From a virus (lineage: Duplodnaviria > Caudoviricetes): 47,647 bases of DNA. Under the pieces are notes generated by a model. That model saw nothing but the letters and a program-made list of their open reading frames with translations. It did not search any database and was not told the DNA's origin. Each line of letters begins with the position of its first letter. Within the stretch, counting starts at the first letter, position 1. Made by a program: the position numbers and the translations under genes. This document shows positions 366-42,618 of the stretch, in pieces. The stretch lies in IMG/VR virus record IMGVR_UViG_3300020519_000124, positions 1 through 47,647 of that record, one strand, 5' to 3'.

Positions 366-406
366 CGGCGTGTCGCCTTGACTTTTTGAGATTTATCTGG
401 TAGTAT
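366..406 (+). promoter_or_regulatory. sigma-A promoter with upstream GTGTC (GACAC) box
   Basis: CGGCGTGTC-gcc-TTGACT-N17-TAGTAT. Confidence 0.65.
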
Positions 407-493: not shown

Positions 494-515
494 TGTCAGC
501 CAAAAATGTTATACT
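494..515 (+). promoter_or_regulatory. TGTCAG-N10-TAnnnT promoter (PafBC/RecA-NDp type), copy 1
   Basis: TGTCAG-ccaaaaatgt-TATACT. Confidence 0.75.
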
Positions 516-547
516 TACTATCTAAAGAAAAAAAAGGAAGTGACACT

Positions 548-757
548 ATGTCAGCAAATGTCTATACTATCGAAAGCCTACTTGTAGGAAAAACTTATCA
601 CTCAAAAACTCTAAAGGGTGAAATCATCTCAGCCGAAAAGTCTGATGTCTGGTATGCGGACTGCGAAAGTTATCGTGTTCAGGTTCGCCCTCACTATTCA
701 CACCCTCTAGGGTTGAAAGATACCTACCGAATTTTAGCGGTCAGGGTGTCTGACTAA
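548..757 (+). CDS. small hypothetical protein, possible SH3-like beta-barrel
   Basis: AGGAAG RBS before ATG 548; LLVGKTY...GEII...YRVQV pattern. Confidence 0.65.
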   Translation: MSANVYTIESLLVGKTYHSKTLKGEIISAEKSDVWYADCESYRVQVRPHYSHPLGLKDTYRILAVRVSD

Positions 758-758
758 T

Positions 759-780
759 TGTCAGCCCCCTCTGTTATACT
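759..780 (+). promoter_or_regulatory. TGTCAG-N10 promoter, copy 2
   Basis: TGTCAG-ccccctctgt-TATACT. Confidence 0.75.
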
Positions 781-812
781 TATCTAAACAAACAAACGAA
801 AGGAAGTCAAAA

Positions 813-1618
813 ATGACTTACACTATAACACTAGAAACCTTCAATGGTTCTACTAAAAAAATCAACCTTGCCTCTAAGGGTGCGGTTGCTCAATTCATCT
901 CAACTTACCCAACACAATTACCCGTTGGCGTATCTGTCAAGGTCGCTTGTGACTCTCTCTCAATTCGTGGCACACTTCGTGGCACACTTATCCCCTCAAA
1001 CTAAACGAATAGGAAATAAAATAAATGAAAACAATTCAACACTCTCTCCACTTCATAACTGAGGTAGATGAAACTCATCCAACTGCTATGCAACTTTTAC
1101 AATTAGATAGTGAAGTGCAAATTCACTTTCTTGAAAGTCTGCTAAAAGAATTGATAGCGCCTGCTCTAAAGCCTGCTCTTGATGAAGTAAATAAAGGCAA
1201 TTCGTGGGCGGTCCTAAAGGTGGCCGAATAATGAGCGATTACTTAGACTACCTTGATGAAATCTACGAGGAATTAGTAGATGAATTTGGACACGAAATAG
1301 AAAGCGAGTGTAATCATAAATGATGACACGAAAAGACTATGTCAAAACTGCTGAAATTCTTAGCAATTATTTTGCTACATCTGTTTTTGATGAACAAGGA
1401 GAAATGTTATTTGCTGACTTAGTAGATGAATTTTCTCTAATGTTTGAAAGTGATAATGAAAGATTTGACGCAAATAAATTTGCTCTTGCTTGCTACAAAA
1501 AAATTGAGGTAGACGCATGAGCAGATTTCTAACAACACTAGTGCAACTTGCTTTGCTAATTTCAACATTTTATTTATTGCGATTAGCAATTCAAGATATA
1601 AAAGAAAACGGATTCTAG
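813..1618 (+). CDS. run of five small early hypothetical ORFs (813-1004, 1025-1231, 1231-1323, 1320-1520, 1517-1618)
   Basis: Coupled start/stop overlaps and RBS; the last is a 33-aa single-TM peptide. Confidence 0.7.
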
Positions 1619-1625
1619 TTTTCAA

Positions 1626-1652
1626 ATCCTGAGCATGATCTAAAACTGCTCA
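1626..1652 (+). ncRNA. H-type pseudoknot motif, copy 1
   Basis: ATC-C-TGAGCA-T-GAT-CTAAAAC-TGCTCA. Confidence 0.75.
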
Positions 1653-1730
1653 ACAAAAATCCCGGCGTGTCTTCCACAGGGTTATACACAGGGTGATTTA
1701 CGACACATTTTAAGATTCCCCCAGATTTTA

Positions 1731-1771
1731 CGGCGTGTCGAATTGAAAATGTCAGTAGGAGATGATAGGCT
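1731..1771 (+). promoter_or_regulatory. composite promoter: GTGTC box, -35, TGTCAG element and extended -10 (copy 3)
   Basis: CGGCGTGTC-gaa-TTGAAA-a-TGTCAG-taggagatga-TAGGCT. Confidence 0.75.
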
Positions 1772-1801
1772 AGAAGCCTAAACCTAATGAAAGGAAAACT
1801 A

Positions 1802-2299
1802 ATGGGATTAGATATGTATTTACAAGCCAAGAAGCACTTGGAAAAAGTGAATTGGAACGCACTAAGAGATAATGATGAATTATCTTATGACTCACCTGAA
1901 GCGGTATATCCGCAATTCAATAATCTAATGGAACTAACACAGTTATCCAATGTCGCAACAGATATCTATGGCGCAAGCGTAGAAGTCACTTGTGCTTATT
2001 GGCGCAAGGCTAATCAGATACACTCTTGGTTTGTCAAAAATGTTCAAAAAGGAATTGACGACTGCGGTGATTACTATGTATCACAAGATAAACTAATTGA
2101 ATTGCTTGCTATTTGTAAGCACTCGCTAGAAAATAAAGACCCTAGCCTATTGCCACCACAGGAAGGATTTTTCTTTGGTGGAACGGATATCGACCAATGG
2201 TATTGGAGAGATTTAGAGAATACTATTGAGCAATTAGAGCGTATTCTTGCTCTACCCGAATTGTCCGATTTGTCCTTTTCATACCATTCGTCTTGGTAA
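1802..2299 (+). CDS. conserved phage hypothetical protein (MGLDMYL...YWRKANQIH family)
   Basis: Recognisable widespread phage motif; AAAGGAAA RBS. Confidence 0.8.
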   Translation: MGLDMYLQAKKHLEKVNWNALRDNDELSYDSPEAVYPQFNNLMELTQLSNVATDIYGASVEVTCAYWRKANQIHSWFVKNVQKGIDDCGDYYVSQDKLIELLAICKHSLENKDPSLLPPQEGFFFGGTDIDQWYWRDLENTIEQLERILALPELSDLSFSYHSSW

Positions 2300-2319
2300 G
2301 GGCTTGGTAGGGTTGAAAA

Positions 2320-2341
2320 TGTCAGCCCTACCTGATAGGAT
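2320..2341 (+). promoter_or_regulatory. TGTCAG-N10 promoter, copy 4
   Basis: TTGAAA-a-TGTCAG-ccctacctga-TAGGAT. Confidence 0.75.
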
Positions 2342-2368
2342 TTCAGTATGAACAGAAAGAAGGAAAAA

Positions 2369-3346
2369 ATGGATAAACTAGACTACGCACTAAGCGCAAT
2401 TCGCTCTTGTTTTATTTGCGAAGGTAGAGGACACCTCTATTGGGGAAATGGCGAGGACTACGACACAGAAACTTGTGAGTGTAATACTTATGACATTATT
2501 CTTGATGATGACGGAGATGTTATTTGGGATAATGGTTTGCTAAGTGAGCCTGAATTGGCTATCTTTGGAAGCAAGGAGGCTAACTAAAATGGGAAGTAAT
2601 TTCGCTAATGAAATGGCAGACGGAACTCTTGCTGAATTAGGTATCCAATTAGATATTGAAACACAGATAGCAATTCACCTATCTAGTAATCACTATCCTC
2701 CAGTGCCTAAAGAAATGGTCGCACCTTGTATTGAGGCTATTGACGCAGTAAATGACTTAGGACTATGGGACTTAGAAATACCACTACCTCAAGGCGTATC
2801 TTGGAGAGGTTTGACTACTGCCCCCGCATGGTCTATTATTGAATCACACCACCTAAATGCGTGGCTTATTGAAAGGGAATACTAAAATGGAATACTCATA
2901 CGCAATTACCGCAACCTATGATAACGATACTGCACCACAATGGGTTGGTCGTTATTCAGACGCAATTAGCGCAGTATCAGAATGGAATAAAATTGTAGAT
3001 TGGGGATTCGCAGATGAATACGCAACCTATAATTTCTCAGAGCCTAGTGGCAAAATGCACACCAAGATTTTTTATCGCAACGGAACAGTTGGAGGAAAGT
3101 AAAATGTCTGATACAATAAATAGCATGGAACTAATTTATGCAGATGAACTCAAGCCAGATCAGTTAATGATTGGCGATTTAATTAAAGTTGGTGATGACA
3201 TTGTTGAGGTTATGTTTATTGAAAGTGATTCAACCGCAGACAATTGGACTATTCAGACTAAGAATGAGTTTGATGAGTTAGAGTTTGCCACTTATTCATA
3301 CACCGATTCAATTCCTTTGTATGTCTTTATAGAAACATATGAGTAA
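2369..3346 (+). CDS. four small hypothetical ORFs (2369-2587 with CxxC/CxC, 2589-2885, 2887-3102, 3104-3346)
   Basis: Tightly packed, each with a GGAG/AGGG-type RBS; starts trimmed from the ORF track. Confidence 0.75.
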
Positions 3347-3803
3347 TAATACTATTGTTCGCTGCACATATTGTGAGATTCAGATAACTCCACAATCTCA
3401 ATCTCACAAAATAGTTTTAGAAAAGCACCTAGAAAAACATCCAGAACTAAAAGGAACTATCTGGTGTGAATACTGCAACAAGACATATAAAAACAATGCT
3501 GCAAAAAAAATGGTGGTTGTAGGAAATGTTAGAAGACAAAAAGTTGCAAGAATTAAAATGAGTAAAGGTTGTGAGTGGGAAGGTGGTTGTGAGTATAAAA
3601 TTACAGACCACAAACAACTTGAACTTGACCATATTAACCCAACACTAAAACTTGCAGCAGTTTCTACAATGTTGCAACAAACCAAAAAGTATCCTTGGGA
3701 AATTGTAGAACAAGAAATAGCAAAGTGCAGAGTGTTATGCAAAATGCATCACGCAATTGCACCAACAACTACTAGAAAAAGACGACACTTAATTGCCGTG
3801 TAG
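3339..3803 (+). CDS. HNH endonuclease with N-terminal zinc finger
   Basis: CxxC...HxxxH, then LELDHINP...KCRVLCKMHH. Confidence 0.75.
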   Translation: MSNNTIVRCTYCEIQITPQSQSHKIVLEKHLEKHPELKGTIWCEYCNKTYKNNAAKKMVVVGNVRRQKVARIKMSKGCEWEGGCEYKITDHKQLELDHINPTLKLAAVSTMLQQTKKYPWEIVEQEIAKCRVLCKMHHAIAPTTTRKRRHLIAV

Positions 3804-3809
3804 GCGCCC

Positions 3810-3850
3810 CGGCGTGTCGTTTTGACATTTTTGCTGAAGTCTGCTAAGAT
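3810..3850 (+). promoter_or_regulatory. sigma-A promoter with GTGTC box, leaderless into ORF 3857
   Basis: CGGCGTGTC-gtt-TTGACA-N17-TAAGAT; ATG 6 nt downstream. Confidence 0.7.
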
Positions 3851-3856
3851 TAGTTT

Positions 3857-4000
3857 ATGACACAAAAGAAAACGCCCGAGGAATTACGCAGACTTATGGA
3901 ATTGCGTAGATCTAATGCTGCCTCAAGCGTTCCGTCAAAGAAAACTTACAATAGGAAAAAAATGTCAGACCCTAGTGATATGATTGAAAAAAGAAAGTAG
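3857..4000 (+). CDS. small basic hypothetical protein (47 aa)
   Basis: Hand translation MTQKKTPEELRRLMELRRSNAA...; contains TGTCAG promoter copy 5 at 3963-3984. Confidence 0.65.
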   Translation: MTQKKTPEELRRLMELRRSNAASSVPSKKTYNRKKMSDPSDMIEKRK

Positions 4001-4006
4001 GACCCC

Positions 4007-4729
4007 ATGACCCAACTAAAACGCTCTAAAGATAGAAAGGTGGCTAACCTTGTCACAAAAAATGGAAAGCAAGCAAGTATCGCCAACACTTTTGGATTGC
4101 CTGCTGGTAAGGCTTACTCGTGCCCTGGTGCCACTAGTGTTTGTGAAAGCGTATGCTACGCAGGAAAACTCGAAAGACTATTCCCCGCAGTAAAAACTAA
4201 TCTGCTACACAATTGGTCATTGCTTAAAGACGCCAACTATGATACTATGGTTGCTCTTATCGATGAGATGATTATTGATTTTGTTGCTGATTGTAATAAA
4301 AAAGACGCTCCTAAATTATTCCGTATCCATTGGGACGGAGATTTCTTTAATGATAATTACACCAACGCATGGAAGACTGTAATCCTTAATCATCCTGAAA
4401 TTCAATTCTGGGTATACACTCGTGTTGCCTCTGCTGCTCTAATGCTCAAGGGTATTGATAATCTAAGTCTATATTTTTCTGCAGATAGCGAGAATGTCAA
4501 AACCGCAGTAGACTTAAAAATTAATAGTGGCATACGCATGGCGTACCTTGCTAAGAATTTTGCTATTGGTAAAGCAGACATAAAAGAAATGATTGGTAAG
4601 CCTGCTGCTAAGTGTCCTGAGAATAATAAACAAATTCCACTTATCTCAACTAGTGGAAGCGCTTGCGTTTCTTGCTCTCTTTGTGTATACTCTAAGAGCG
4701 ACATAATTTTTTCATCGAGTAAGAAATGA
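4007..4729 (+). CDS. GP88-family (radical-SAM-like Fe-S) phage protein
   Basis: CPGAxxxCxxxCYA, FRIHWDGDFF, C-terminal CxxCxxC. Confidence 0.75.
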   Translation: MTQLKRSKDRKVANLVTKNGKQASIANTFGLPAGKAYSCPGATSVCESVCYAGKLERLFPAVKTNLLHNWSLLKDANYDTMVALIDEMIIDFVADCNKKDAPKLFRIHWDGDFFNDNYTNAWKTVILNHPEIQFWVYTRVASAALMLKGIDNLSLYFSADSENVKTAVDLKINSGIRMAYLAKNFAIGKADIKEMIGKPAAKCPENNKQIPLISTSGSACVSCSLCVYSKSDIIFSSSKK

Positions 4730-4856
4730 GATAAATGAATTCAACACAATGGATGTTCTTAGCATTCTTTTTATTACTGTTATTTTTCTATCAATAATTT
4801 TTTGGAGGCCCCGGCCCGTTTTGTTTGATCTGTCAAGTCGCAACACACCTTTAAGA

Positions 4857-4872
4857 TGTGATTAAGGACACA
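4857..4872. promoter_or_regulatory. CRP-family palindrome
   Basis: TGTGA-TTAAGG-ACACA. Confidence 0.6.
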
Positions 4873-4961
4873 CCCCAAATCCCTCGCCCGATTGGTATTT
4901 TTGACATTTTTCTGCTAGAATTATACTATAAGCAAAACCCCATAACAGAAAGGCAGAACAA

Positions 4962-5132
4962 ATGACCCTCGGAGGATACACCTATCAGATTGGTGATTTA
5001 TTCACGACAAGCAAGACAGGCATTACAGGTCGTATTGCTAGTTTTGAGCCAATGTCTAATAAACTTACCAGAGTTAGTCTAGTTCTAGCAAATGGCTCAC
5101 GCCGTTTGGCTATGGTCAAGACCAGCAAGTAA
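4962..5132 (+). CDS. 56-aa SH3/KOW-like protein, paralog A
   Basis: Hand translation MTLGGYTYQIGDLFTTSKTGITGRIASFEP...TRVSLVLANGSRR. Confidence 0.75.
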   Translation: MTLGGYTYQIGDLFTTSKTGITGRIASFEPMSNKLTRVSLVLANGSRRLAMVKTSK

Positions 5133-5229
5133 TCTCACTATTTGAGAAATCTCAAATTAGATTTGACATTTTTCCCAAGAAATGTCATAATTATACAGTA
5201 AGCAAAACCCTAACAGAAAGAGGAAACAA

Positions 5230-5394
5230 ATGTCAGTAGCAACCGCAACTTACAAAGTAGGCGACACCTACACAACTCAAAAGTCAAAGGTAAGTGGTAT
5301 CATCACAGAAATCACACCACAGGCTAACGGAAATGTTCGTGTCAAGTTAGATGTAAATGGCAAGCCACGATACACAACTTGGACAGCCAAGTAA
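5230..5394 (+). CDS. 54-aa SH3/KOW-like protein, paralog B
   Basis: MSVATATYKVGDTYTTQKSKVSGIITEITP...VRVKLDVNGKPRY; leader duplicated with paralog A. Confidence 0.75.
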   Translation: MSVATATYKVGDTYTTQKSKVSGIITEITPQANGNVRVKLDVNGKPRYTTWTAK

Positions 5395-5409
5395 TTTAGC
5401 AAACGCTAA

Positions 5410-5440
5410 TAGTCCTGAGTATGACTACAAAAACTGCTCA
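5410..5440 (+). ncRNA. H-type pseudoknot motif, copy 2
   Basis: TAGTC-C-TGAGTA-T-GACTA-CAAAAAC-TGCTCA. Confidence 0.8.
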
Positions 5441-5447
5441 CCAAAAT

Positions 5448-5469
5448 TGTCAGAGCAAAGTGCTATGAT
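5448..5469 (+). promoter_or_regulatory. TGTCAG-N10 promoter, copy 6
   Basis: TGTCAG-agcaaagtgc-TATGAT. Confidence 0.75.
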
Positions 5470-5504
5470 AGAACCCCCAACTAATAGAAAAGGAAAAAGA
5501 CCCA

Positions 5505-5927
5505 ATGTCAAGAGGAAAAGCAATTAGTGTAAAGATACCCACAGTAAAAGTTATCAAGGCACTAGAAACAAAGTTAGCAGAACTAGAGGCTAACTACAAA
5601 ACACAAGACGAGAACGAAGCAAAGTATCAAAAGCAATACGAGAAGTGGCAGAAGGAAATTGCTAAGTGGGCAGTTGCTCAATTTAGCAAGGCTGACAACA
5701 TCAGAACTAACTATCGTTCTTGGAACGAAAGCCTCAATGTTGATTTTGACATCAAAACAAATGGCACAGACTTTCCAAAAGAGCCTGAGCGTGGTTTTGA
5801 GCAAATCCACCGCCACGAATACAACTCTCAAAAAGAGGAAATGTCTAACGCAATTCGTATCCTAAAGATGACAGATGAGGAAGTAGTCAATACTTCTACC
5901 TACAACGCAGTTGCTCGTTATCTATAA
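5505..5927 (+). CDS. hypothetical protein
   Basis: 140-aa ORF with RBS and its own promoter. Confidence 0.8.
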   Translation: MSRGKAISVKIPTVKVIKALETKLAELEANYKTQDENEAKYQKQYEKWQKEIAKWAVAQFSKADNIRTNYRSWNESLNVDFDIKTNGTDFPKEPERGFEQIHRHEYNSQKEEMSNAIRILKMTDEEVVNTSTYNAVARYL

Positions 5928-5939
5928 TTAGATAATAAA

Positions 5940-5967
5940 CAACCTGAGTATGTTGCTAAACTGCTCA
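5940..5967 (+). ncRNA. H-type pseudoknot motif, copy 3
   Basis: CAAC-C-TGAGTA-T-GTTG-CTAAAC-TGCTCA. Confidence 0.8.
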
Positions 5968-5994
5968 CCCTAAAATTACTAACAAAGGAATGAA

Positions 5995-6486
5995 ATGTCA
6001 AACGATTTGGAAATCACAATATTAAAGCCAGTAGAGAATTTTGTTCTATTAAAAAACAAAATTAGAAAAGAAATGTCAGAAACCCCAGCAGAAGATTTAG
6101 AAGCATACAAAAGATTTGAATGGGAAAAGTGGAGCGAAGAATGGGGCAACTCTTGGGACAATATTAAAAACGGAGCAACAGAGCCCAACCTTTTGGCTCA
6201 AGTAAGAGATGTCTTAGGATACTCAGTTGAACAATACCCTTGCACAAAGGAAGAAATAGATGCGGCATATGCAAAGGCTAAGAAAGAAAGAGCAGAAAGA
6301 AAAGAAGCAGATAGGCTTGCACGAGTTCAACAATTAAAGGAAGCACAAGAAGCCTTTGACAGACTTACTCCTGAAGAACAGTCTGCCCAATTAGAGAAAA
6401 ACCGCAAAGAGGCGCAAAGGAAGTTTGTGCGAAATGCCATTACTCTTTCCATTTTGGTATTTGTTATAGTCTTTGTAAGTCTTTAA
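5995..6486 (+). CDS. hypothetical protein with C-terminal TM anchor
   Basis: Coiled coil followed by ITLSILVFVIVFVSL. Confidence 0.7.
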   Translation: MSNDLEITILKPVENFVLLKNKIRKEMSETPAEDLEAYKRFEWEKWSEEWGNSWDNIKNGATEPNLLAQVRDVLGYSVEQYPCTKEEIDAAYAKAKKERAERKEADRLARVQQLKEAQEAFDRLTPEEQSAQLEKNRKEAQRKFVRNAITLSILVFVIVFVSL

Positions 6487-6577
6487 TTAAATAATTGGGT
6501 GGGGTGTAAAAGCCCCACTCATTATCCCCTGCGCTCCACGCTATGGTTAGCAAGTGTTCCCTGGGGATCCTATAATT

Positions 6578-6599
6578 TGTCAGCGGTACCTAGTATAAT
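6578..6599 (+). promoter_or_regulatory. TGTCAG-N10 promoter, copy 7
   Basis: TGTCAG-cggtacctag-TATAAT. Confidence 0.75.
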
Positions 6600-6631
6600 T
6601 AATTTAAACCAACTAACAGAAAGAGGCCCCC

Positions 6632-7054
6632 ATGGACCAGTCAATAGAAACACCAGTAGTACATGCAACAGAAGACTTTCTTAAGTCACAAATCGAAAGT
6701 GCTAAGGTAGAAATTCAGCAACTACACGAGCACATTCAAAAAGTAACTCAGCGCTCATATGGTGAGGCTGCAGAGCGTAACCGTATGCGTAATGAAATGC
6801 AAGAGTGGACCTTAGAGGCCTTGGACGCTAGCGATATCACAGAATCACAGGCGGAAGAAATTGCAATGATTTGCGGATTTGATTTAACAAAAGAATTTGA
6901 AGTAGAAGTTACAGTAATGTACTCGGTTACAGTTAATGCACGTAATGAAGAAGAAGCACAGAATGCAATTCACGATATTGATTTTGATACCGTCGACTAC
7001 AACAGTGATTCAATTTCTTATCTATCATCCTCAATTGATAGAGTAGACATTTAG
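6632..7054 (+). CDS. acidic hypothetical protein
   Basis: 140-aa ORF, GAAAGAGG RBS. Confidence 0.8.
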   Translation: MDQSIETPVVHATEDFLKSQIESAKVEIQQLHEHIQKVTQRSYGEAAERNRMRNEMQEWTLEALDASDITESQAEEIAMICGFDLTKEFEVEVTVMYSVTVNARNEEEAQNAIHDIDFDTVDYNSDSISYLSSSIDRVDI

Positions 7055-7100
7055 TAGGGGGCTACTAATAGACATGTCGAATGTCTCTAAACTAGGCAAG

Positions 7101-7130
7101 GGCCCTGAGCACGGCCATGTAAACTGCTCA
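7101..7130 (+). ncRNA. H-type pseudoknot motif, copy 4 (degenerate tandem copy at 7070-7098)
   Basis: GGCC-C-TGAGCA-C-GGCC-ATGTAAAC-TGCTCA. Confidence 0.8.
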
Positions 7131-7168
7131 ATAAAAATTTCCGGCCCCGCAAACTTTGATTTGTCAAG

Positions 7169-7263
7169 CGACACGCCGTGTGATTAAGATCACTTTAAGA
7201 AATGTCCAATTTGTCCATGTTTAACTATCCCGATTTGCATTTGTCAGCCCATACTGCTATACT
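7169..7263 (+). promoter_or_regulatory. regulatory cassette: inverted GACAC box, CRP-type site and TGTCAG promoter copy 8
   Basis: CGACACGCCG 7169-7178; TGTGA-TTAAGA-TCACT 7179-7194; TGTCAG-cccatactgc-TATACT 7242-7263. Confidence 0.7.
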
Positions 7264-7295
7264 TGAAATTCAACAACAACAAAAGGAGAAAACTC

Positions 7296-8312
7296 ATGGC
7301 ACATGAAATCGAAACACAAAATGGTAAGGCTTCATTCGCATCATTTCGTGAACCCGCTTGGCATGGATTGGGTACCGTATTTACAGAAGAAAAAACAACA
7401 AAAGAAATGTTAGATTTGGCTAATCTTTCTAATTGGAATGTTCGTCTGGAAGATTTGGAAACCCCCTCACATTTATCAAGCGATAAAAACTATCAGTATG
7501 TATTGCGTACCAATCCTACTGACAACTCTCAGACCGACATTCTTGGTGTCGTTGGTGAGCGTTATCATGTTATGCAGAACGAAGATTTATTTTCATTCGG
7601 TGATAACATTCTAGACGGCGGAGGTCGTTGGGAAACGGCTGGCTCAATCAAGGGTGGTCGTGTCGTGTTCGGTGCATTAGCACTAGAGCGTGAAACAATT
7701 CTAGACCCTAGCGGTGTTGCAGATAAGGTCAAGACTTATTTACTTATCAATACATCACATGACGGCTCAATCGCTATTCAAGCAAGCATTACACCTGTTC
7801 GTGTTGTGTGCGCTAACACTCTCAATCTTGCACTTGGCTCACTCAAGAAAAAGAATGGTGTCAAGCAATCTTTCAAGATTCGCCACACTCAGACCGCTTC
7901 TGGTAAGGTTGCCGTTGCTCGTGAAACTTTGGGTCTTGCCCATAAGTACATGGATTCTTTTGATGTTATGGCTAACGCTATGATTCAGAAAGAAGTATCC
8001 GCTCAGCAATTCAATGACATCATTCTCGCTGCTTATCCTAAGCCTGAGAAAGATTCTAAGGGTGCTTTCAAGAAGTGGGAAAACAAGGTTGATGTTATCA
8101 ATGACATCTACACAGGCGAATTCAATGGCATGATTGCTGGAAACGCTTGGGGTGCTTTCAATGCACTAACAGAACGCCTTGATTGGTATCGCTCTGCTCG
8201 TGGTGGTTCTAACGAATCAATTCTTGCAAGCGCAAGCGGTTTTGACCCTGCTATCAATGCAGAAAAAAATCGTCTGCTAAAAGTTGTGCAAAATGTTTTG
8301 CAGATTGCATAA
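7296..8312 (+). CDS. DUF932-family phage/plasmid protein
   Basis: PAWHGLG, ETAGSIKGGRVVF, YLLINTSHDGS, TPVRVVCANTL, RHT. Confidence 0.9.
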   Translation: MAHEIETQNGKASFASFREPAWHGLGTVFTEEKTTKEMLDLANLSNWNVRLEDLETPSHLSSDKNYQYVLRTNPTDNSQTDILGVVGERYHVMQNEDLFSFGDNILDGGGRWETAGSIKGGRVVFGALALERETILDPSGVADKVKTYLLINTSHDGSIAIQASITPVRVVCANTLNLALGSLKKKNGVKQSFKIRHTQTASGKVAVARETLGLAHKYMDSFDVMANAMIQKEVSAQQFNDIILAAYPKPEKDSKGAFKKWENKVDVINDIYTGEFNGMIAGNAWGAFNALTERLDWYRSARGGSNESILASASGFDPAINAEKNRLLKVVQNVLQIA

Positions 8313-8321
8313 ATAAAAAAA

Positions 8322-8349
8322 ATTCCTGAGCAAGAATAAAAACTGCTCA
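8322..8349 (+). ncRNA. H-type pseudoknot motif, copy 5
   Basis: ATTC-C-TGAGCA-A-GAAT-AAAAAC-TGCTCA, 6 nt before tRNA-Asp. Confidence 0.8.
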
Positions 8350-8355
8350 CCAATT

Positions 8356-8431
8356 GGTTCCGTAGATTAGTCTGGTTTAAATCGCTACACTGTCACTGTA
8401 GAGATCGTGGGTTCAAATCCCATCGGAATCG
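8356..8431 (+). tRNA. tRNA-Asp(GTC)
   Basis: Acceptor GGTTCCG/CGGAATC, anticodon arm CTACA-CTGTCAC-TGTAG, GTTCAAATC T loop; no encoded CCA. Confidence 0.92.
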
Positions 8432-8456
8432 CAAATGCGCCCCGGCACATGCATAT

Positions 8457-8532
8457 AAAAATGTCAAATCTAAAAATCTTTACGAAGACTATTATAAATC
8501 CCCAAAAATGTCAAAACCAAAAATCTTTACGA
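8457..8532 (+). repeat. 29-bp direct repeat upstream of a TTGACA promoter
   Basis: AAAAATGTCAAA-nnn-AAAAATCTTTACGA at 8457 and 8504 (27/29 identical). Confidence 0.75.
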
Positions 8533-8572
8533 TAGGCTTGACATTTCCCAGGTTTTCTGCAATAATTAATAC

Positions 8573-10076
8573 ATGACCCAAACATACAAACCATACACCA
8601 TAAACGAACTCGTATGCGAAATCTACGAGGACAACCTATCGCACTTTGAATTTGAAGAGAACATGGGTGGAGAGCCCTGTGACTGCAACCTACATATCAC
8701 AATGGAAACTATTGTAAAGTATTGGGGAGAATAATGTGGACTAAGTTTACTTATCTATGTACAGACTGTGATGCTCTTATAGAGATTACTGCATCTGTTG
8801 AGCCTCAGATTGATCCCGCCTGTATTTGCCATGCATCATCTCATGTAATCCTATTAAGCAAATGGGATGCAACTGTTACCCATGTGGATGAGGATCCTAC
8901 CCCTGACTACGAGCCTGTGATTAAGGTCACACCCCGTGAGGTTGTAAAAATCAACTCTAACCCGTATAATTAATATATGAACACATTAATAGAATATCTA
9001 AAGATACACGCAATCAGCCTAGAGCAGGACCTAGAGGATATCTCTAATCAGATGGAGAGCCTTGACCCTGCTTCTAAAGATTACACTGAGTTAGACTTTG
9101 AGTATAATCATGTGTCAGGTCAATCTCTTGCTACCCGCCACATTTTGTCAGTGGCAGAGGGTATGATAGAGTAATGATAACTACAGAACTAGCACCACAC
9201 CTACAGAAACTCGTTGACCTTGGAGAATCAGGAACTGATATCCTCCATGGTGAACTTAAGAACCTCATGTATGAGGCTGAGAAAGAATACAATGCCGCTG
9301 TTGAGCAAGAAGAATACACGGAAGAGGCTATGGATTCCATGGAGCGGAAGTACTGGGAAGGCCAAATGGACGCTCTATCTTGGGTATATGCCCTGACATA
9401 CCAACTATCGTTTGCCATTAGTGATAGGACAAAGAAGAATGCCTAAGTGCCTAGATTGCGGTAACACTGTTAAGTTTACTTATATGGAGAACAGTTACAA
9501 TGAGGCTGAGTACGACCAAGCAGGCGAACTTGTAGATGTCACCTATAAGGAGTATCATGATGTTGAGGAAGGCACTTGTAAAGAGTGCGAATCTACAAAC
9601 ATCGAGGGGAAACTGTAATGGACACATTCATTGAACTATCATTTGAAGATTGGATTGAGCAATACAAACCAATCACTAACCATATAGACAAGAATGCCTC
9701 CTTTCAGGATGAGGACGGTAATGGTCTTATGTTTGAAACCTATGGTGATGAGGTAGAGTTTGTTAAATCTCAATCCCCTGACAAAATCTGGATGTATGGC
9801 GACGGTGATGACGGTGGCTCTTATATCTGGTCTGGCTGGGGATTTGTAAATAGATTAGGATACTTCATCACTGAGGTACCGTGCCCACCTAATACCACGA
9901 TTCAGATTCAAGTAGGAGTACAGTGGTACTTCTGTGAGAACTGTTATGCTGAACTGGAAGACCCTGATAATCTTATTAGAGATGCCTTCCAAGAACACGA
10001 TTTGGAAAAATGTACAGAATGTGCTACACTTGAAGAAATGACCCTAGTAGGACTAAAAATAAAGGAGACCCAATGA
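8573..10076 (+). CDS. six small hypothetical ORFs (8573-8734, 8734-8973, 8977-9174, 9174-9446, 9439-9618, 9618-10076), several with CxxC zinc ribbons
   Basis: TAATG/ATGA coupling; internal CRP site 8916-8931 and TGTCAG promoter copy 9 at 9146-9167. Confidence 0.75.
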
Positions 10077-12328: not shown

Positions 12329-12393
12329 TGTGGATAAACCTGTGGATAACTTCTATATCCAAACCAATATAGATGTGTCAAACCTGTGGATAA
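12329..12393 (-). promoter_or_regulatory. three perfect DnaA boxes
   Basis: TGTGGATAA at 12329, 12341 and 12385. Confidence 0.7.
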
Positions 12394-16387: not shown

Positions 16388-16461
16388 GGAGCAGTAGCCA
16401 AGTTGGTCAAGGCCCCGAACTCATAATTCGGTTATCGTAGGTTCAAGTCCTACCTGCTCTA
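16388..16461 (+). tRNA. tRNA with CAT anticodon (elongator Met or Ile2)
   Basis: GGAGCAG/CTGCTCT acceptor, CCGAA-CTCATAA-TTCGG; lacks the initiator GGG/CCC stem. Confidence 0.88.
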
Positions 16462-16465
16462 CTAT

Positions 16466-16538
16466 GTCTCCATGGTCTAGAGGCCTAGGACTCCACCCTT
16501 TCACGGTGGCAACACGGGTTCGAATCCCGTTGGAGATA
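16466..16538 (+). tRNA. tRNA-Glu(TTC)
   Basis: GTCTCCA/TGGAGAT acceptor, CCACC-CTTTCAC-GGTGG. Confidence 0.92.
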
Positions 16539-16542
16539 CTGA

Positions 16543-16614
16543 ACCTCTGTAACTCAGCGGAAGAGTAGCGGACTTCTAATCCGTTTGTCGCAGGTTCGAT
16601 TCCTGCCAGGGGTG
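16543..16614 (+). tRNA. tRNA-Arg(TCT)
   Basis: ACCTCTG/CAGGGGT acceptor, GCGGA-CTTCTAA-TCCGT. Confidence 0.92.
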
Positions 16615-16628
16615 CTATAATTAGTTAT

Positions 16629-17540
16629 ATGAACGAAAATCTTTTGTTTTACAGAACATTAAAGGAAGCATCAAGAAGACATCCAAGTGAACTTGGTAAA
16701 ACGGTTTATTCTAATCAAGATATTTTAGAGGAAATATCTTACAATATCAATAGCCATGGCTACAGATCTGAAGAATTTAACAAAAACAACGAAGTAGTGG
16801 TTTTGGGCTGCTCTCAAACCTACGGCTCTGGGATGCACAACGAACTTACATGGCCTGAGTTTTTTTGTAATTTTACAAATCAAAAATATTCAAGGCTTGC
16901 AATTCCAGGAGATTCCATAGGTGCTCAAGTATATAAAGCCTTTAAATATTTTGAAGAAGTAGGAAATCCAAAATTAGTTATTGGGCTATTTCCACTATAT
17001 AGACTAGAATATATTTCTGTGCCAGGAAAATTTGAAGGTGATAATCCAAGAAATGGGGCACAAAGATCAGAGTTATCAGTAGGAATAGCATTCTTTTATC
17101 AACAATACATAACAAAAATTTCAAAAGTACCACACAACCCAGAATATGTTATTCCAAAAGAGTTTGTGATGTTTTATAATTTTATGCTTATAAAAATGCT
17201 TGAACAATACTGTGAATCACACAATATAAAATTTATATGGAGCATATATGATAGCAAAGAAGATAAAAAAGAAATGGAGTTTTCTTCTTACAACATTTTA
17301 AAAAATTATTTAAACACATCAGATTTACTTCAGCAGCCAGACGATCAACCACAAAGTCACCTTTCAAATTGCTCTATATCGTCTCAAAAAGAATATTGCG
17401 GAAAATTTTCTCGACACAAACTATACTCTTGGGCAGCAGATACTGTTTCAGAAAAACAATTAGGTCATTGGGGAATACATGTAAATCACCATATTGCAAA
17501 ACTATTTGCAGATAAATATATGGAGATAAAAAATGATTAA
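16629..17540 (+). CDS. SGNH-hydrolase-like protein
   Basis: NSHGYR...LGCSQTYG...GHWG..H. Confidence 0.6.
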   Translation: MNENLLFYRTLKEASRRHPSELGKTVYSNQDILEEISYNINSHGYRSEEFNKNNEVVVLGCSQTYGSGMHNELTWPEFFCNFTNQKYSRLAIPGDSIGAQVYKAFKYFEEVGNPKLVIGLFPLYRLEYISVPGKFEGDNPRNGAQRSELSVGIAFFYQQYITKISKVPHNPEYVIPKEFVMFYNFMLIKMLEQYCESHNIKFIWSIYDSKEDKKEMEFSSYNILKNYLNTSDLLQQPDDQPQSHLSNCSISSQKEYCGKFSRHKLYSWAADTVSEKQLGHWGIHVNHHIAKLFADKYMEIKND

Positions 17541-17618
17541 CAATATTAGATGGCAGTACTACAAAATAGTCATATACTTTAAAAATAAAAAAAGAAAAAA
17601 GAAAGACTTTATATATTA

Positions 17619-19040
17619 ATGATAATACTTGGAATTAACGAAACATCTCACGACGCTTCAATATCCCTAATCAAAGATGGAGAAATACTTTTTGCAGGAC
17701 ATGCAGAAAGATATAGTAAGAAAAAAAATGACTGGTATATCAATGATAGTTTAATAAAAGATGCTTTAAAATATGGCGTACCAGATCATATTGCTTACTA
17801 TGAGAAACCGCTTTTAAAGGCTTCCAGACTGGCTTTAAGGGGTGGGACTGGAGACTGGAAGCCAAGGTTTGAACTCCCTGGAATTCCAAGAAAATCTTTT
17901 AGTCATCACTACTCTCACGCTGCAGCAGGATACTATACAAGTTCATTTAATGATGCTGCAATTGTTGTTTTAGATGCTATGGGTGAATACAATACCTCCA
18001 CAATTTGGGTTGGCGAAGGCGAAAAGATTAAACTAAAGTATAAGCAAAATTATCCTATTAGTTTTGGATTATTCTATTCAGCCTTTACACAACTAATAGG
18101 TCTTATGCCAAACCAAGAAGAATATATTATGATGGGTATGGCTGCTTATGGTGATTGGACAAAGTATTATAAGAAGGTTGACGAGTATTTCCCTTCATAC
18201 GACAATCAAAAATATAATTTTCATAAAGGAATTACAGATTGGGGCTGGGTTTTAGAAGAAGATAAATTTGATATTGCAGCAGCAGTTCAGTTTGTTTATG
18301 AGCAAAGACTAAATGACTTTATGCGTATGGCAAAGTCAATTACTGGTAAAAACAATTTAGTATTTATGGGTGGGTGTGCTCTTAACTCTTCAGCAAATAC
18401 GCTATTATGGAATATTTTTGATACGATTTGGATTATGCCAAATCCTGGTGATGCTGGAAGTTCTTTAGGCGCTGCAGCAGCACTATACGGAAAACATATT
18501 GAGTGGAAAAATCCTTACTTGGGTTACGATTTGGGCGGGGAATACCCAGTAAGCAAAATATTAACAGGACTAATAAGAGACAAAGTTGTGGCAGTGGCAT
18601 CAGGTAGGGCCGAGTATGGTCCAAGAGCATTGGGTAATAGGTCTATACTTGCAGATCCAAGAGATCCAAACATTAAAGATAAGGTAAATCTAATTAAACA
18701 AAGAGAACTTTTTAGACCATTTGCACCAGTGGTACTAGCAGAGCATGCACACAAATGGTTTGATATGGATTTTGAAAGCCCCTATATGCAGTATACCGTT
18801 AAATGTTTGCAGCCAGATAAAATTCCTGCTGTGGTTCATAAAGACGGGACTTCAAGGGTACAGACAGTAAAAAAAGAACAGCATCCAGGACTATATGAAG
18901 TATTATCTAATTGGCATGCAATGACAGGTATTCCTATATTACTAAATACAAGTTTAAATATAAAAGGACAACCATTGTTAAATGACGAAAAAGATATAGA
19001 AAAATGGGAGCAAACATATAGTAGTTCTGTGGTAAAATAA
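17619..19040 (+). CDS. O-carbamoyltransferase (NodU/CmcH family)
   Basis: HDAS, HHYSHAA, MGMAAYG, GGCALN, EYGPRALGNRS, RPFAP, LNTSLN. Confidence 0.95.
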   Translation: MIILGINETSHDASISLIKDGEILFAGHAERYSKKKNDWYINDSLIKDALKYGVPDHIAYYEKPLLKASRLALRGGTGDWKPRFELPGIPRKSFSHHYSHAAAGYYTSSFNDAAIVVLDAMGEYNTSTIWVGEGEKIKLKYKQNYPISFGLFYSAFTQLIGLMPNQEEYIMMGMAAYGDWTKYYKKVDEYFPSYDNQKYNFHKGITDWGWVLEEDKFDIAAAVQFVYEQRLNDFMRMAKSITGKNNLVFMGGCALNSSANTLLWNIFDTIWIMPNPGDAGSSLGAAAALYGKHIEWKNPYLGYDLGGEYPVSKILTGLIRDKVVAVASGRAEYGPRALGNRSILADPRDPNIKDKVNLIKQRELFRPFAPVVLAEHAHKWFDMDFESPYMQYTVKCLQPDKIPAVVHKDGTSRVQTVKKEQHPGLYEVLSNWHAMTGIPILLNTSLNIKGQPLLNDEKDIEKWEQTYSSSVVK

Positions 19041-19044
19041 CAAT

Positions 19045-19890
19045 ATGAATAATGAAATTATCAATTTAGAAAAAATACCAGACATTTTTTTATATAGATC
19101 ACTAAAAGAAATGAGTGGACACGCTTTGCCAAATACAAAAGCAGACTCAGTTAAAATAGAATACAGACTAAATACTCATGGATATAGATGTGATGAATTT
19201 ACTAATCAAAAAATTCTAACTCTTGGCTGTTCTCAAACAGAGGGTCACGCACTCCCAATAGAATTAACCTGGCCTTACTTGATATCACAAAAAATGAATA
19301 AAGGCTATATAAACTTAGCAAAAGGTGGAGATGGGATGCAAGCGCAAATAGTAAAAGCATTTCAATTTTTTAAAGAATTTTATCATCCAACACACATATT
19401 CGCAGTATTTCCAATAACAAGAATGGAAGCACCTTTAATTAATCTAAAAGTAAGAAATAACAAAAATATAAAAAACTTAAATACAGAAGATTACATAGGC
19501 AAGGCTTTACTTTCAAATAATTGGATTGAAAAATTTTCTAAAGAACCTCACACAATAGAAAATGTTTTACCAGAAGAGTTTGCAATTTTTTACAATATTT
19601 TATTTATGAAAATTTTTATACAATACTGCAAATCCAACAACATTAAACTAGTATGGACCTATTATAATGATTCCTCTTTAGAAAAATATTCATTTACAAA
19701 ATTTACTGACACATATTTTGAAAGCCCTCATATAGATAGTGTGTGCATTCCAAAAGAACTGGGATGTCATATGGAATTGTCAGATAACAAATTTTTTGAT
19801 TATGCTGCAGACTATGAGTATTGGCCACCTGGACATTATGGATTTCACAAACATTTGCATATTGCAGAAGAAATGTTTAGCATGCTATAA
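19045..19890 (+). CDS. SGNH-hydrolase-like protein, paralog of 16629
   Basis: NTHGYR...LGCSQTEG...QIVKAFQFF...GHYG..H. Confidence 0.6.
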   Translation: MNNEIINLEKIPDIFLYRSLKEMSGHALPNTKADSVKIEYRLNTHGYRCDEFTNQKILTLGCSQTEGHALPIELTWPYLISQKMNKGYINLAKGGDGMQAQIVKAFQFFKEFYHPTHIFAVFPITRMEAPLINLKVRNNKNIKNLNTEDYIGKALLSNNWIEKFSKEPHTIENVLPEEFAIFYNILFMKIFIQYCKSNNIKLVWTYYNDSSLEKYSFTKFTDTYFESPHIDSVCIPKELGCHMELSDNKFFDYAADYEYWPPGHYGFHKHLHIAEEMFSML

Positions 19891-19898
19891 TAGGAATA

Positions 19899-19961: not shown

Positions 19962-19984
19962 CCTAATTTTTGAGGTGAACTTGT

Positions 19985-25883: not shown

Positions 25884-26165
25884 TTACTCCATTGTTAGGG
25901 ATTGCCATGTTGTTCCCCAATCAGCCTTTGTTTTATGACTAGAAAATTCTTTTGACAACTCTCCATTTTCTAAGTATACCCCGCCCCAAACGCCCCACTC
26001 TTTACCAGAAATACCAACAGAAAAACATTCTTTTCTTACTGGGCAAGTAGAGCACAATAAATCTACAGCAGGTCTTAAAAGTTCATCTTCTTCATACTTG
26101 TCAAAGAATACATTTGTATCATAATCCAGGCATGCAGCATTATCTTTCCATTCATACTTATTCAT
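25884..26165 (-). CDS. whiB: WhiB-family Fe-S transcription regulator
   Basis: W...AAC...FF...CxxCPVRKEC...WGVWGG. Confidence 0.93.
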   Translation of the reverse strand: MNKYEWKDNAACLDYDTNVFFDKYEEDELLRPAVDLLCSTCPVRKECFSVGISGKEWGVWGGVYLENGELSKEFSSHKTKADWGTTWQSLTME

Positions 26166-29931: not shown

Positions 29932-29979
29932 GAAGGCCACTCCATATTGTCAGGGCCTTTACTAATTGCTTTCCAAATT

Positions 29980-36087: not shown

Positions 36088-36102
36088 ATAATAATTATAC
36101 TC

Positions 36103-36627
36103 CTAAGCACTGACAATGTCAACTGGACCCATGCAGGATGGGCTAAATTTTATGGCTGCATTAACTGCCTGAAGAACTCTATTTCTTGCATTTTTTTGTT
36201 TGTCTGTGGCATACAAAACCCCATACGCATACTCTGCTCCAGAGCCCATGGCTAGATATGGAACTGTATATTTAGATAAAGACATATCCCCAGAACTGTG
36301 TTCATATATTTCTCCACGAATTGCAACAATTAATCCTAGGTCTCCGTCTTTGGATGTATCAACCCAGAACTCGTTATAAAAATCACGAAGTTCTTTAACA
36401 AACTTAGTCTGCATAAATTTGTCTGTGTCTTTAAGGTTGGGTGCTGTTGGTTTAAAATTATAACGGATTCTTTCTCCGTCCATTGCACCAGCATATCCAA
36501 TAAGATATGGACCTATCTTCCAAACCTTTGGCGCATCAAGTGATAGAATAGTATTATCGTCAGATGCCCCACGATCTCCAGCCATATATACTTTACCTTC
36601 GTGTTTTACTACAGCAATACAGGTCAT
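36103..36627 (-). CDS. Ntn-hydrolase peptidase (HslV/proteasome-beta-like)
   Basis: M-T-C start (N-terminal Thr), MAGD, K, AMGSG..YA.G. Confidence 0.8.
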   Translation of the reverse strand: MTCIAVVKHEGKVYMAGDRGASDDNTILSLDAPKVWKIGPYLIGYAGAMDGERIRYNFKPTAPNLKDTDKFMQTKFVKELRDFYNEFWVDTSKDGDLGLIVAIRGEIYEHSSGDMSLSKYTVPYLAMGSGAEYAYGVLYATDKQKNARNRVLQAVNAAIKFSPSCMGPVDIVSA

Positions 36628-40836: not shown

Positions 40837-42618
40837 TTATAGTGTTTTTAGTCTGTCCAGGTAGTCTTTTATTTCTTCTATCTGGCTAGGTTTATATTGT
40901 ATCACGTTCTCAGGTAGTTCGTCAACTCGCTTAGGTCTATCCCTAAAAGTATGAACCTCTACCTCAGTGTCTGTATTTTTAGGGGTATAAGATATAGCCC
41001 CAAAAATAGCACCACACACAGCATCAGCCAAGTCCTTTGACTTTTTGCGTGGATGGTCAACTCTATCATTTTTCATAATCTTTAACTGGGTTAGTTCATC
41101 AAATAATAAATCAATTGCAGGCATAGCAAGTCTTTCCTCATACACGAGCATAGCCATATCCTCATAGTGCTTCTTGGCAACAGAAACAGTATCAGTTTTC
41201 ATTCCAACCTGCTTTAATTCATTTTGAATATCAAATGACTGCCAACGGTCAAACGAAACCATGCCAATATCAAACCCTATCCTTCTAAGGTTTTGGATCC
41301 ATTGTTTAACTTCAGATAGGTTTACTGGTCCTTCAACCTTTGGCTCCCACCACGCTACTGCATCTACTACTACGATTGGTGCTACTTGTTCGTAGTTATT
41401 GATTACTTGTATGTTTACCCATTTTTCTACATGTGCAATTGCTACAGCACACTTGTCATGCTTCTGTGCAAGGTCAGCATGAACATAATATTTCTTAGTT
41501 GGATCTGGCTTAAAGGCTTCATCAAATCTTTTAAAGTTATCTATTGGGTTTCTTAATGTCATACAGGCTCTTACTTTTTCTGCCTGCTTAAAGAATGCAT
41601 CTGAAGCAAAAGTTGGTACGCATGCAAAGCGCATCATGGCATCACCAAGGTCTGTCATAAATGCAATCATAAAGTCGTCAATCTTGCGAGTAGGGTTTAC
41701 TTCCCATGTAGGTCTCTTTAGTGCAAATACTCCTGGGTACTTGTATGAAATTATATGATCTTCGTCCCACGAAATTTGAAACTTATTATCTGGATCTGTG
41801 TCTGGGAGTAGTGGATTAATTATAAACTCATGTGTTTTTTCAACTGATTCTTTTTCAGCAATTACTGCATCATACTTTTCTGAAATAAAGTCGCCTGGAT
41901 ATCTTGGAAATGAAAGCAAAACAACCTTACCTAGATCTGGGAAACGAGAGTCTACTGATCCACGGAAAGCCTTGTAAATGTTGTCTGCAGTCTTTCCTTG
42001 TTCGTTACCTGTTCCAACCTCAGATGCAAAACCAGAAATCTCATCAAGTACTGCAAGTAGCAAGTTCAAACCCTCATGTGATTCTCTTTCTGAGTGACCA
42101 GAATAAACAGTAATTGATTTATCAAACTCAACTGAGTCTGCCTTAGCATTATACTTTCCAGCAAACCATGGGGACTTTTCAATCTTAGATTTAAAACCTT
42201 TAAAGAAAACATTCTTTGCTTGTTGTGCGTTAATAGCAACATTGATAAGGTCAATAGCATCTCCAGAGGGCTTTCCAAAATACTTTGCAGGGTCTTTTAG
42301 GCATAATAGTTTATATACTATATATGAACATGCTACGGTTGATGTGAAGTCTTTTCCAGATCCCTTGCCAAGTTGCAGGATGATTTCATTCTTTGTGTAC
42401 TTATCGTAGTACCTTGATCCTTTTTCTTCCCCCATTATATCTATCAAATCTTCTTTACGATAAATCTGACTCATAGCCTCAACAATGTCATATTGAATAT
42501 CAGACAAAGGTGGTTGGCCAAGGTAGTCTGGAGACTCAACAAAAGTCTTTGCATCTACTGGGGTTTCTTCAAAGTGATTACTTTTAAGAACTTCTAAAAA
42601 ATCATCAAAGTTTGCCAT
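40837..42618 (-). CDS. terL: terminase large subunit
   Basis: Walker A GKGSGKD, Walker B AVLDE, nuclease HADLA...D...FD.WQS...KDLADA. Confidence 0.9.
   Translation of the reverse strand: MANFDDFLEVLKSNHFEETPVDAKTFVESPDYLGQPPLSDIQYDIVEAMSQIYRKEDLIDIMGEEKGSRYYDKYTKNEIILQLGKGSGKDFTSTVACSYIVYKLLCLKDPAKYFGKPSGDAIDLINVAINAQQAKNVFFKGFKSKIEKSPWFAGKYNAKADSVEFDKSITVYSGHSERESHEGLNLLLAVLDEISGFASEVGTGNEQGKTADNIYKAFRGSVDSRFPDLGKVVLLSFPRYPGDFISEKYDAVIAEKESVEKTHEFIINPLLPDTDPDNKFQISWDEDHIISYKYPGVFALKRPTWEVNPTRKIDDFMIAFMTDLGDAMMRFACVPTFASDAFFKQAEKVRACMTLRNPIDNFKRFDEAFKPDPTKKYYVHADLAQKHDKCAVAIAHVEKWVNIQVINNYEQVAPIVVVDAVAWWEPKVEGPVNLSEVKQWIQNLRRIGFDIGMVSFDRWQSFDIQNELKQVGMKTDTVSVAKKHYEDMAMLVYEERLAMPAIDLLFDELTQLKIMKNDRVDHPRKKSKDLADAVCGAIFGAISYTPKNTDTEVEVHTFRDRPKRVDELPENVIQYKPSQIEEIKDYLDRLKTL

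Follow-up and report, generated by a model that had tools for sequence, protein, structure and literature searches.

Candidate PafBC-type promoters ahead of the probable early genes of a phage likely to infect lake actinobacteria

Introduction

The PafBC promoters of Mycobacterium and other Actinobacteria (also called RecA-NDp or recA P1-type promoters, and used through sigma adaptation) are described with the consensus tGTCgg(N10)tA(N3)T, with the upstream element at -23 to -28 and no -35 consensus (PMC8635444). Arginines R46 and R50 of PafB read the GTC triplet at -27 to -25, whereas PafC holds domain 4 of sigma-A (PMC8635444; PMC11804915); sigma-A alone is described as not recognising these promoters in mycobacteria (PMC8635444). 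PafBC is activated by single-stranded DNA (ssDNA) of at least 6 nt and binds solely to promoter DNA that is already occupied by RNA polymerase (RNAP); ssDNA attached to the genome has been proposed to need a local position for PafBC (PMC11804915). Here we analyze IMGVR_UViG_3300020519_000124, a virus contig of 47,647 bases (the window, at its full length), in which nine TGTCAG-N10-TAnnnT sites stand before small genes. An earlier note on this DNA had proposed that the phage thereby couples its early genes to the host PafBC. The phage sites resemble PafBC promoters in the GTC at -27 to -25, the 10-nt spacer and the TAnnnT of sigma-A, and the probable host family encodes PafBC and has this element before its recA. 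They differ in lying on a phage genome, before genes other than repair genes; in a hexamer that is almost always TGTCAG, against tGTCgg in the consensus; in a stronger -10 box, with an extended TG in 59% and a near-consensus -35 box in about one fifth; and in being mixed with CRP-, DnaA- and GACAC-type boxes.

A link between phage genes and the ssDNA alarm of the host is familiar from SOS/LexA-coupled genes and prophage induction, in which the alarm leads to repressor release in temperate phages. The link is alike here, but activation would replace repressor release; moreover, no LexA box lies near any of the 819 phage sites collected, and no integrase Pfam match was found among 135 scanned open reading frames (ORFs) of a complete relative (G003). 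In phage T4, the MotA box of middle promoters lies near -30. Those promoters, like the present ones, combine a -10 box with an upstream element other than a -35 box and use the housekeeping polymerase of the host (MotA/AsiA sigma appropriation; PMC8635444). The T4 activator, however, is encoded by the phage and remodels sigma domain 4, whereas here the element is the host's own and no phage activator was detected.

Results

Nine co-oriented TGTCAG sites at a fixed spacing

The nine sites listed by the earlier note are all present, on the + strand:

494..515, + strand, site 1: TGTCAG-N10-TATACT with extended TG and -35 box TTGATA (5/6); before gene 548-757; predicted start at about 522
759..780, + strand, site 2: TGTCAG-N10-TATACT with TG, no -35 box (1/6); before the small-gene run 813-1520
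1750..1771, + strand, site 3: TGTCAG-N10-TAGGCT with TG and -35 box TTGAAA (5/6); CGGCGTGTC at -47; before gene 1802-2299 (phrog_7971)
2320..2341, + strand, site 4: TGTCAG-N10-TAGGAT with TG and -35 box TTGAAA (5/6); before genes 2348-3803; predicted start coincides with the in-frame ATG at 2348
3963..3984, + strand, site 5: TGTCAG-N10-TATGAT with TG, no -35 box; inside the end of ORF 3857-4000 and before the GP88-family gene 4007-4729
5448..5469, + strand, site 6: TGTCAG-N10-TATGAT with TG, no -35 box; before genes 5505-6486
6578..6599, + strand, site 7: TGTCAG-N10-TATAAT, no TG, no -35 box; before gene 6632-7054
7242..7263, + strand, site 8: TGTCAG-N10-TATACT with TG and -35 box TTGCAT (3/6); before the DUF932/TIGR03299 gene 7296-8312
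9146..9167, + strand, site 9: TGTCAG-N10-TATGAT, no TG, no -35 box; ATG 9174 at the predicted start

Over the whole window TGTCRG-N10-TAnnnT has 12 matches, whereas 100 dinucleotide shuffles gave 0.78 on average and never more than 3. The fixed 10-nt spacer that had been claimed is specific: on the + strand TGTCAG gives 10 matches at spacer 10 and 0-2 at each other spacer from 5 to 21. The GTC triplet is present in 9/9 sites, all of which read TGTCAG, and the geometry is that of the published PafBC layout (PMC8635444). An extended TG, said to be present in most, occupies -15/-14 in seven of the nine (it is absent at 6578 and 9146). The TTGnnn sequences noted at the -35 position of 494, 1750, 2320 and 7242 are also there, but the description of them as weak holds only for 7242, since five of six bases match TTGACA in the other three (TTGATA, TTGAAA and TTGAAA); the remaining five sites match at no more than two. 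At 3963 and 9146 the site falls within the 3'-terminal part of the ORF before it (3857-4000 and 8977-9174, respectively).

Three matches had been missed, at 549, 19920 and 36115 (- strand). That at 549 is probably a coding coincidence and that at 19920 (TGTCGG) is probably due to chance. The third belongs to a dual promoter in which a perfect TTGACA and the TGTCAG share one -10 box; ordinary promoters of the TTGACA type also occur in the block itself, at 378, 3822 and 4901:

549..570, + strand: additional match, lying over the start codon of gene 548
36094..36122, - strand: dual site, not in the block, where one TATAAT serves TTGACA-N17 as well as TGTCAG-N10 (36115-36094); the ATG of a 60-aa gene (36087-35905) comes 6 nt after the -10 box
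378..406, + strand: ordinary sigma-A-type promoter, TTGACT-N17-TAGTAT, within the block

Other readings of the motif were tried and rejected. The upstream half of a palindromic operator, TGACA-W-TGTCA, is missing from most sites; TGTCAG does not behave as the -35 element of an alternative sigma factor, since the lineages have no element 16-17 nt downstream in common; and, as for LexA control of the window, the single match, with one mismatch, lies at 40609, far from the block.

Conservation among related loci

Conservation was followed in the best 80 of 416 IMG/VR stretches that encode a relative of the DUF932 protein, a set of close kin rather than independent loci. The motif occurs in 80/80, with at least three sites in 75, and TGTCAG on the + strand totals 586 matches at spacer 10, whereas none of the spacers 6-9 and 11-14 gives more than 31. 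When the strict motif was sought within 100 nt upstream of each ortholog, it was found for 60/62 orthologs of gene 548, 56/61 of gene 813, 12/12 of gene 1802, 76/80 of the DUF932 gene and 70/78 of gene 6632 (53 of those 70 have TTGAC(A/T) as well). It is less constant before GP88 (40/67), gene 9174 (31/57), gene 5505 (28/73, with no promoter within 100 nt in 43) and gene 2369 of site 4 (4/13, a TTGACA promoter taking its place in eight). Conversely, genes with a TTGACA-type promoter or none in the window have the motif in some relatives (gene 4962, 23/63; gene 5230, 27/69). Because orthologous genes switch between them, the TGTCAG and TTGACA promoter classes are exchangeable. Across orthologs the hexamer is fixed and the spacer sequence drifts. 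Judged from these comparisons of sequence, the motif in the window is a real, conserved promoter-like element.

The position of start codons points the same way. An ATG peak lies 6-7 nt after the -10 box (33/338, 42/469 and 13/26 unique sites, neighbouring offsets being about 0) and the base at the predicted +1 is A in 76% of cases in the 80 loci; both would fit true -10 boxes and, in part, leaderless messages. In the window, an ATG coincides with the predicted start at 2348, 9174 and 36087, and the message of site 9, if started at 9174, would be leaderless. In the sites of the clade, TG is found at -15/-14 in 212/360, the -10 box matches its consensus at 4.8 of six positions on average, and A occupies -24 in 96% of 358 phage sites against 72% of 39 host sites.

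The probable host family has PafBC and the same element at recA

Contigs of the clade occur in five bacterial or archaeal bins, two of Actinomycetota and three of unrelated taxa. Both actinobacterial bins fall in one family, within the same sampled set: Nanopelagicaceae, with Ca. Nanopelagicus and Ca. Planktophila. From these bins the host is probably a member of the Nanopelagicaceae and, given this family and the context of the relatives, the phage is likely one of actinobacteria, of lake origin.

The check for PafB and PafC that the earlier note had called for was positive: each is found in 58 of 61 Nanopelagicaceae genomes. The PafB of the family aligns to the solved M. smegmatis protein, and equivalents of R46, R50, Y196 and R214 are present in 22/22 sequences; the R211 position is R in 11 of these, K in 10 and N in one. 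A phylum-wide tally that takes in ten unpublished genomes gave PafB in 200 of 301, and no conclusion here draws on it. The element was likewise to be sought before host recA, and YGTCRG-N10-TAnnnT lies upstream of 28 of the 30 recA loci examined, out of 52 genomes with recA (one of the two misses had just 52 nt of upstream DNA). The hexamers are CGTCAG (10), CGTCGG (9), TGTCAG (8) and TGTCGG (1). Five host genomes hold 55 strict sites; among the 30 inspected are sites before dnaN, dnaB, dinB, carD, recA, a DEDD exonuclease gene and DNA methyltransferase genes, and several others, inside genes, are probably there by chance. Sites directly before an adenine methyltransferase gene (L158, in G223) and before a cytosine methyltransferase gene and carD (L182 and L162, in G101) suggest that the host PafBC regulon may include restriction-modification genes.

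No PafBC-like reader was found in the phage. WYL, HTH_PafC and sigma-70 region 4 matches are absent from the five complete relatives, a PafB profile found no match in 23,823 six-frame phage segments (best E 3.8 for the helix-turn-helix [HTH] part and 0.59 at full length, the host control being recovered), and none of the 135 scanned G003 ORFs matched an HTH or sigma Pfam family.

The element in other phage lineages

A 14-base version of the pattern occurs in an estimated 1300 or so IMG/VR stretches at spacer 10 against about 160, also an estimate, at spacer 11. Among 80 listed loci with full flanks, 66 have at least three sites and 65 of these (the loci overlap) resemble the clade of the window. 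The exception, G264, has 23 sites, 20 of them on one strand, against none in its control. It encodes two WhiB proteins, a PolA-type polymerase and a different capsid; of its ORFs, 15 match clade proteins, and none of these is a terminase, portal, capsid or polymerase. By gene content, G264 is a second, unrelated actinophage lineage. In this 111-kb WhiB phage (G264:C1:40862-59518, L473), many of about 20 sites read TTGCAA-A-TGTCAGG. G545, distantly related within the family of the window itself (capsid 76% identical), has 26 sites within 9 kb, all with TG; 25 of them match TTGACA at no more than three positions, so that the hexamer is the only upstream element there. They form 26 cassettes (G545:C1:26422-35158, L731). 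In each, a GC-rich GGCCCGGG stretch comes first, then a TGTCAG promoter and finally a single tiny gene; in half of the cassettes an ATG falls on the predicted start. A scan of IMG/VR with TGTCGG gave at least three sites in 14 of 80 loci, none of high GC; G546 and G547, which lack similarity to the clade, have six scattered sites on both strands.

Kinship of the phage and the genes behind the sites

The contig is a fragment of a larger phage: five relatives rated complete measure 108-118 kb. The terminase is related to those of Streptomyces phages of the Stanwilliamsviridae (clusters BE and BK). A RecA-like recombinase is encoded in the window beside WhiB and the terminase. Four genes place the phage and its promoter block:

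40837..42618, - strand: terminase large subunit, 54-55% identical to those of Streptomyces BE/BK phages
4007..4729, + strand: GP88-family gene, with homologs 4.3-5.9 kb from the left end in five BE phages
7296..8312, + strand: DUF932/TIGR03299 gene, with homologs in the terminal repeat of BE phages
25884..26165, - strand: WhiB-family gene, a marker of an actinobacterial host (PMC10202952)

The DUF932 homologs are assigned to the terminal repeat because they occur at two places in each BE phage record; in five BE phages both they and the GP88 homologs lie less than 6 kb from the left end. The promoter block, about the first 9 kb, otherwise holds small genes without a known family, and family, atlas and paper searches could assign only DUF932 and GP88 among the genes downstream of the sites. 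These genes, called early in the earlier note, are probably so, because of the homology of the block to BE phages and the small size of its genes. Four of 17 metatranscriptome runs were inspected; all consist of contigs, possibly with some DNA among them, and they carry no weight here as evidence of expression or habitat. The only cultured phages of Nanopelagicales, of 39 kb and with their own sigma factor (PMC10202952), are of a different group.

The terminal-repeat promoters of the Streptomyces BE phages (Samisti12 and others) are alike in preceding homologous GP88 and DUF932 genes, in having one small gene per promoter and in a TAGACT -10 box with TG. Among 51 candidate promoters of five phages taken together, orthologous copies included, 11 have GTC at spacer 10, and no other spacer gives more than two. 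However, the element is degenerate (mostly TGTCCT or TGTCCC) and usually accompanied by a -35 box, and strict matches number three in Samisti12 and one in Phredrick. The motif of M. smegmatis PafBC is reported as apparently not conserved in S. venezuelae (PMC9380542), which weakens an extension to the BE phages.

Other boxes and genes of the window

Boxes for other host regulators share the intergenic DNA of these promoters. CRP/GlxR-type boxes (TGTGA-N6-TCACA) lie at 331, 440, 4857, 7179 and 8916, all five in the first 9 kb against 2.35 expected over the whole window. In the relatives, 401 such boxes are spread over 79 of the 80 loci; they start mostly at -72, -82 and -93 and keep the helical phase of the promoters. 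A cNMP-binding protein is found in 37 of 41 host-family genomes. DnaA-type boxes (TTATMCACA) number eight against 1.34 expected (315, 1682, 12329, 12341, 12385, 14598, 21593 and 24222), three clustering at 12329-12393, and 478 in the 80 loci. Perfect LexA-type boxes are absent from the window and present in ten of the 80 loci (L013:3725, L032:1724, L040:1743, L183:1174 and others), in motif-rich spacers away from TGTCAG; possibly they are decoys. The sequence CGGCGTGTC is found at 366, 1663, 1731, 3810 and 7170 (the last on the - strand), often at -47 before either promoter class, and 144 times in the 80 loci. Its reverse contains GACAC, the WhiA box (PMC10243135), so that an input from WhiA or WhiB, the phage itself encoding WhiB, is possible.

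A further repeated element, CCTGRGYA-loop-AAACTGCYC, occurs soon after stop codons in seven copies (none expected), at 1628, 5414, 5943, 7104 and 8325 and, on the - strand, at 23066 and 34996. It has a short stem, one copy with a compensatory change, 306 copies across 80/80 loci and no Rfam match; possibly it is a small pseudoknot. Rfam recognized only tRNAs in the window, and four tRNA genes (Asp, Met, Glu and Arg) lie at 8356-8432 and 16388-16615. Genes for a carbamoyltransferase and a glycosyltransferase, in a low-GC block (16629-21049), and for tryptophan halogenase, APS kinase, hydroxylase and sulfotransferase families (28184-31894) probably serve surface or DNA modification. An HslV-like peptidase gene followed by that of the 60-aa protein of the dual site, acidic and with Cys and His residues (35905-36696, - strand), recurs as a pair in the unrelated G264. 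Finally, a 397-aa, secreted-looking, alanine-rich protein (39623-40816, - strand) has more than 1500 homologs and no Pfam family; this surface-like protein was found in 0/61 host-family genomes and, by one weak match, in 201 genomes of the class, which neither supports nor opposes the host link.

Discussion

In our view the nine sites are probably genuine sigma-A promoters, with the host PafBC reading their TGTCAG, so that ssDNA arising during infection would boost the probably early genes above a basal level. The coupling put forward in the earlier note is thus supported by the geometry, by PafB, PafC and the recA element of the host family, by the lack of WYL, PafC-HTH and sigma region-4 matches in the phage and by the unrelated lineage; as the sole switch of these genes, PafBC is not supported. 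It would act as a booster, because an extended -10 or a good -35 box is present at many sites besides, and as one input among several, given the frequency of TG in the clade, the near-consensus -35 boxes in 3/9 sites, the switching of orthologs between classes and the boxes of the CRP, DnaA and, in some loci, LexA type. Basal expression at entry would come from the extended -10 and partial -35 boxes, alongside the plain TTGACA promoters; such transcription is suggested by phage cores better than those of the host and by the plain promoters of the block. Processing of the incoming genome end, phage replication or breakdown of host DNA would then yield ssDNA near these promoters, and this would be local if the block, like its BE homologs, sits at the genome end. 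Loaded with ssDNA, the host PafBC on RNAP-bound promoters would raise phage transcription, a positive feedback by which the host alarm would be turned into phage gene expression.

Several observations weigh against this reading. A -35 box matching at five or six positions accompanies 69/360 clade sites, whereas published PafBC promoters are described without one. Side peaks at spacers 5, 15 and 16 (85, 78 and 170 matches in the 80 loci) blur the preference for spacer 10, although they are probably second TAnnnT matches inside the same promoters. The host recA sites are mostly CGTCRG (19/28), with a weak TACCTT and no TG, and the phage sites are stronger, with near-consensus -10 boxes, so that many may work without an activator. 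Genome-wide strict counts in the five host genomes, 9-14 against 5-9 in the control, are a modest excess, and the capsid relatives of G264, DSL-LC01 and BlueNGold, have zero and three sites. The host link itself is weak because bins can be contaminated and three of the five belong to unrelated taxa. Most phage proteins lack a family and an activator of unrecognised fold is possible. Membership among PafBC promoters is unproven: their dependence on PafBC and ssDNA is predicted from sequence, and the absence of a -35 box holds for only part of the sites.

A phage-encoded activator is the basis of the foremost alternative, which we regard as unlikely: a MotA-like protein, expressed from the TTGACA promoters, would recognise TGTCAG and thereby define a delayed-early class, the likeness to PafBC being due to convergence or ancestry. 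The two promoter classes do stand side by side in the block, the spacers of phage sites differ from those of the host, most small phage proteins lack a family, and a few small proteins, including WhiB, an FmdB-type zinc ribbon and a phrog_7971 protein, are common to G264 and the clade. However, neither the searches of the five complete relatives nor those of the G003 ORFs revealed a candidate, and hexamer and spacing are identical to the host's own element and recur in two lineages without a shared terminase, capsid or polymerase match; in addition, WhiB contacts DNA upstream of -35, as described without base specificity (PMC10243135), and orthologs that switch class fit fixed temporal classes poorly. 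That exchangeability equally suits a slightly less likely alternative, in which another host factor, or the sigma-A holoenzyme itself, recognises the hexamer at -28 to -23, making strong constitutive promoters with no link to DNA damage. Extended TG in 7/9 window and 26/26 G545 sites would agree, as would its similar frequency in TTGACA-only phage promoters (132/257); yet the latter have no base preference at -28 to -23, the host element precedes recA and repair or replication genes, which is the known PafBC pattern, and sigma-A alone is reported as blind to these promoters in mycobacteria (PMC8635444).

That the sites serve mainly as decoys, tying up PafBC-RNAP and blunting the damage or anti-phage response within an array of host-regulator boxes, seems to us improbable. 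In favour of it, the 80 loci have 401 CRP-, 478 DnaA- and ten perfect LexA-type boxes, where a single mononucleotide shuffle gave 2, 42 and 0; in two genomes DNA methyltransferase genes follow host sites, and Rafique et al. 2025 is cited as connecting PafBC with resistance to phages (PMC12848934). But the nine sites are co-oriented with genes and hold the spacing to the -10 box, and each has an ATG at its predicted start or a ribosome-binding site; any site bound by PafBC would also fire, because PafBC does not bind promoters without RNAP (PMC11804915). Least credible of all is a functionless relic spread by copying of promoter cassettes: the near-identical flanks of the G545 sites do look like cassette duplication, but in the window's clade the spacers diverge while the hexamer stays, and the unrelated lineage has different flanks, so that conservation largely refutes it.

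To return to host PafBC as the reader, we found no description of PafBC-type promoters in a phage in the full-text literature, most subscription journals lying outside that search. WYL regulators are described as host sensors that switch on repair and defence genes upon ssDNA, and phage genes placed under one would, if the reading is true, invert the alarm; the host, through PafBC, would then supply what T4 encodes itself as MotA. The system would also offer a direct test of whether infection gives rise to PafBC-activating ssDNA, the natural ligand of PafBC being a matter of debate (PMC11804915). The motif may mark the hosts of uncultured actinophages, hosts described as lacking CRISPR spacers (PMC10202952). 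More tentatively, and with rather less confidence than in the reading of the nine sites, in several unrelated phages infecting the most abundant bacteria of fresh water, the genes expressed first may independently have come under PafBC, and ssDNA of the incoming genome would turn a damage alarm, possibly an anti-phage one, into a trigger for takeover: an amplifier without a phage regulator, perhaps timing lysis to sunlight-damaged cells.

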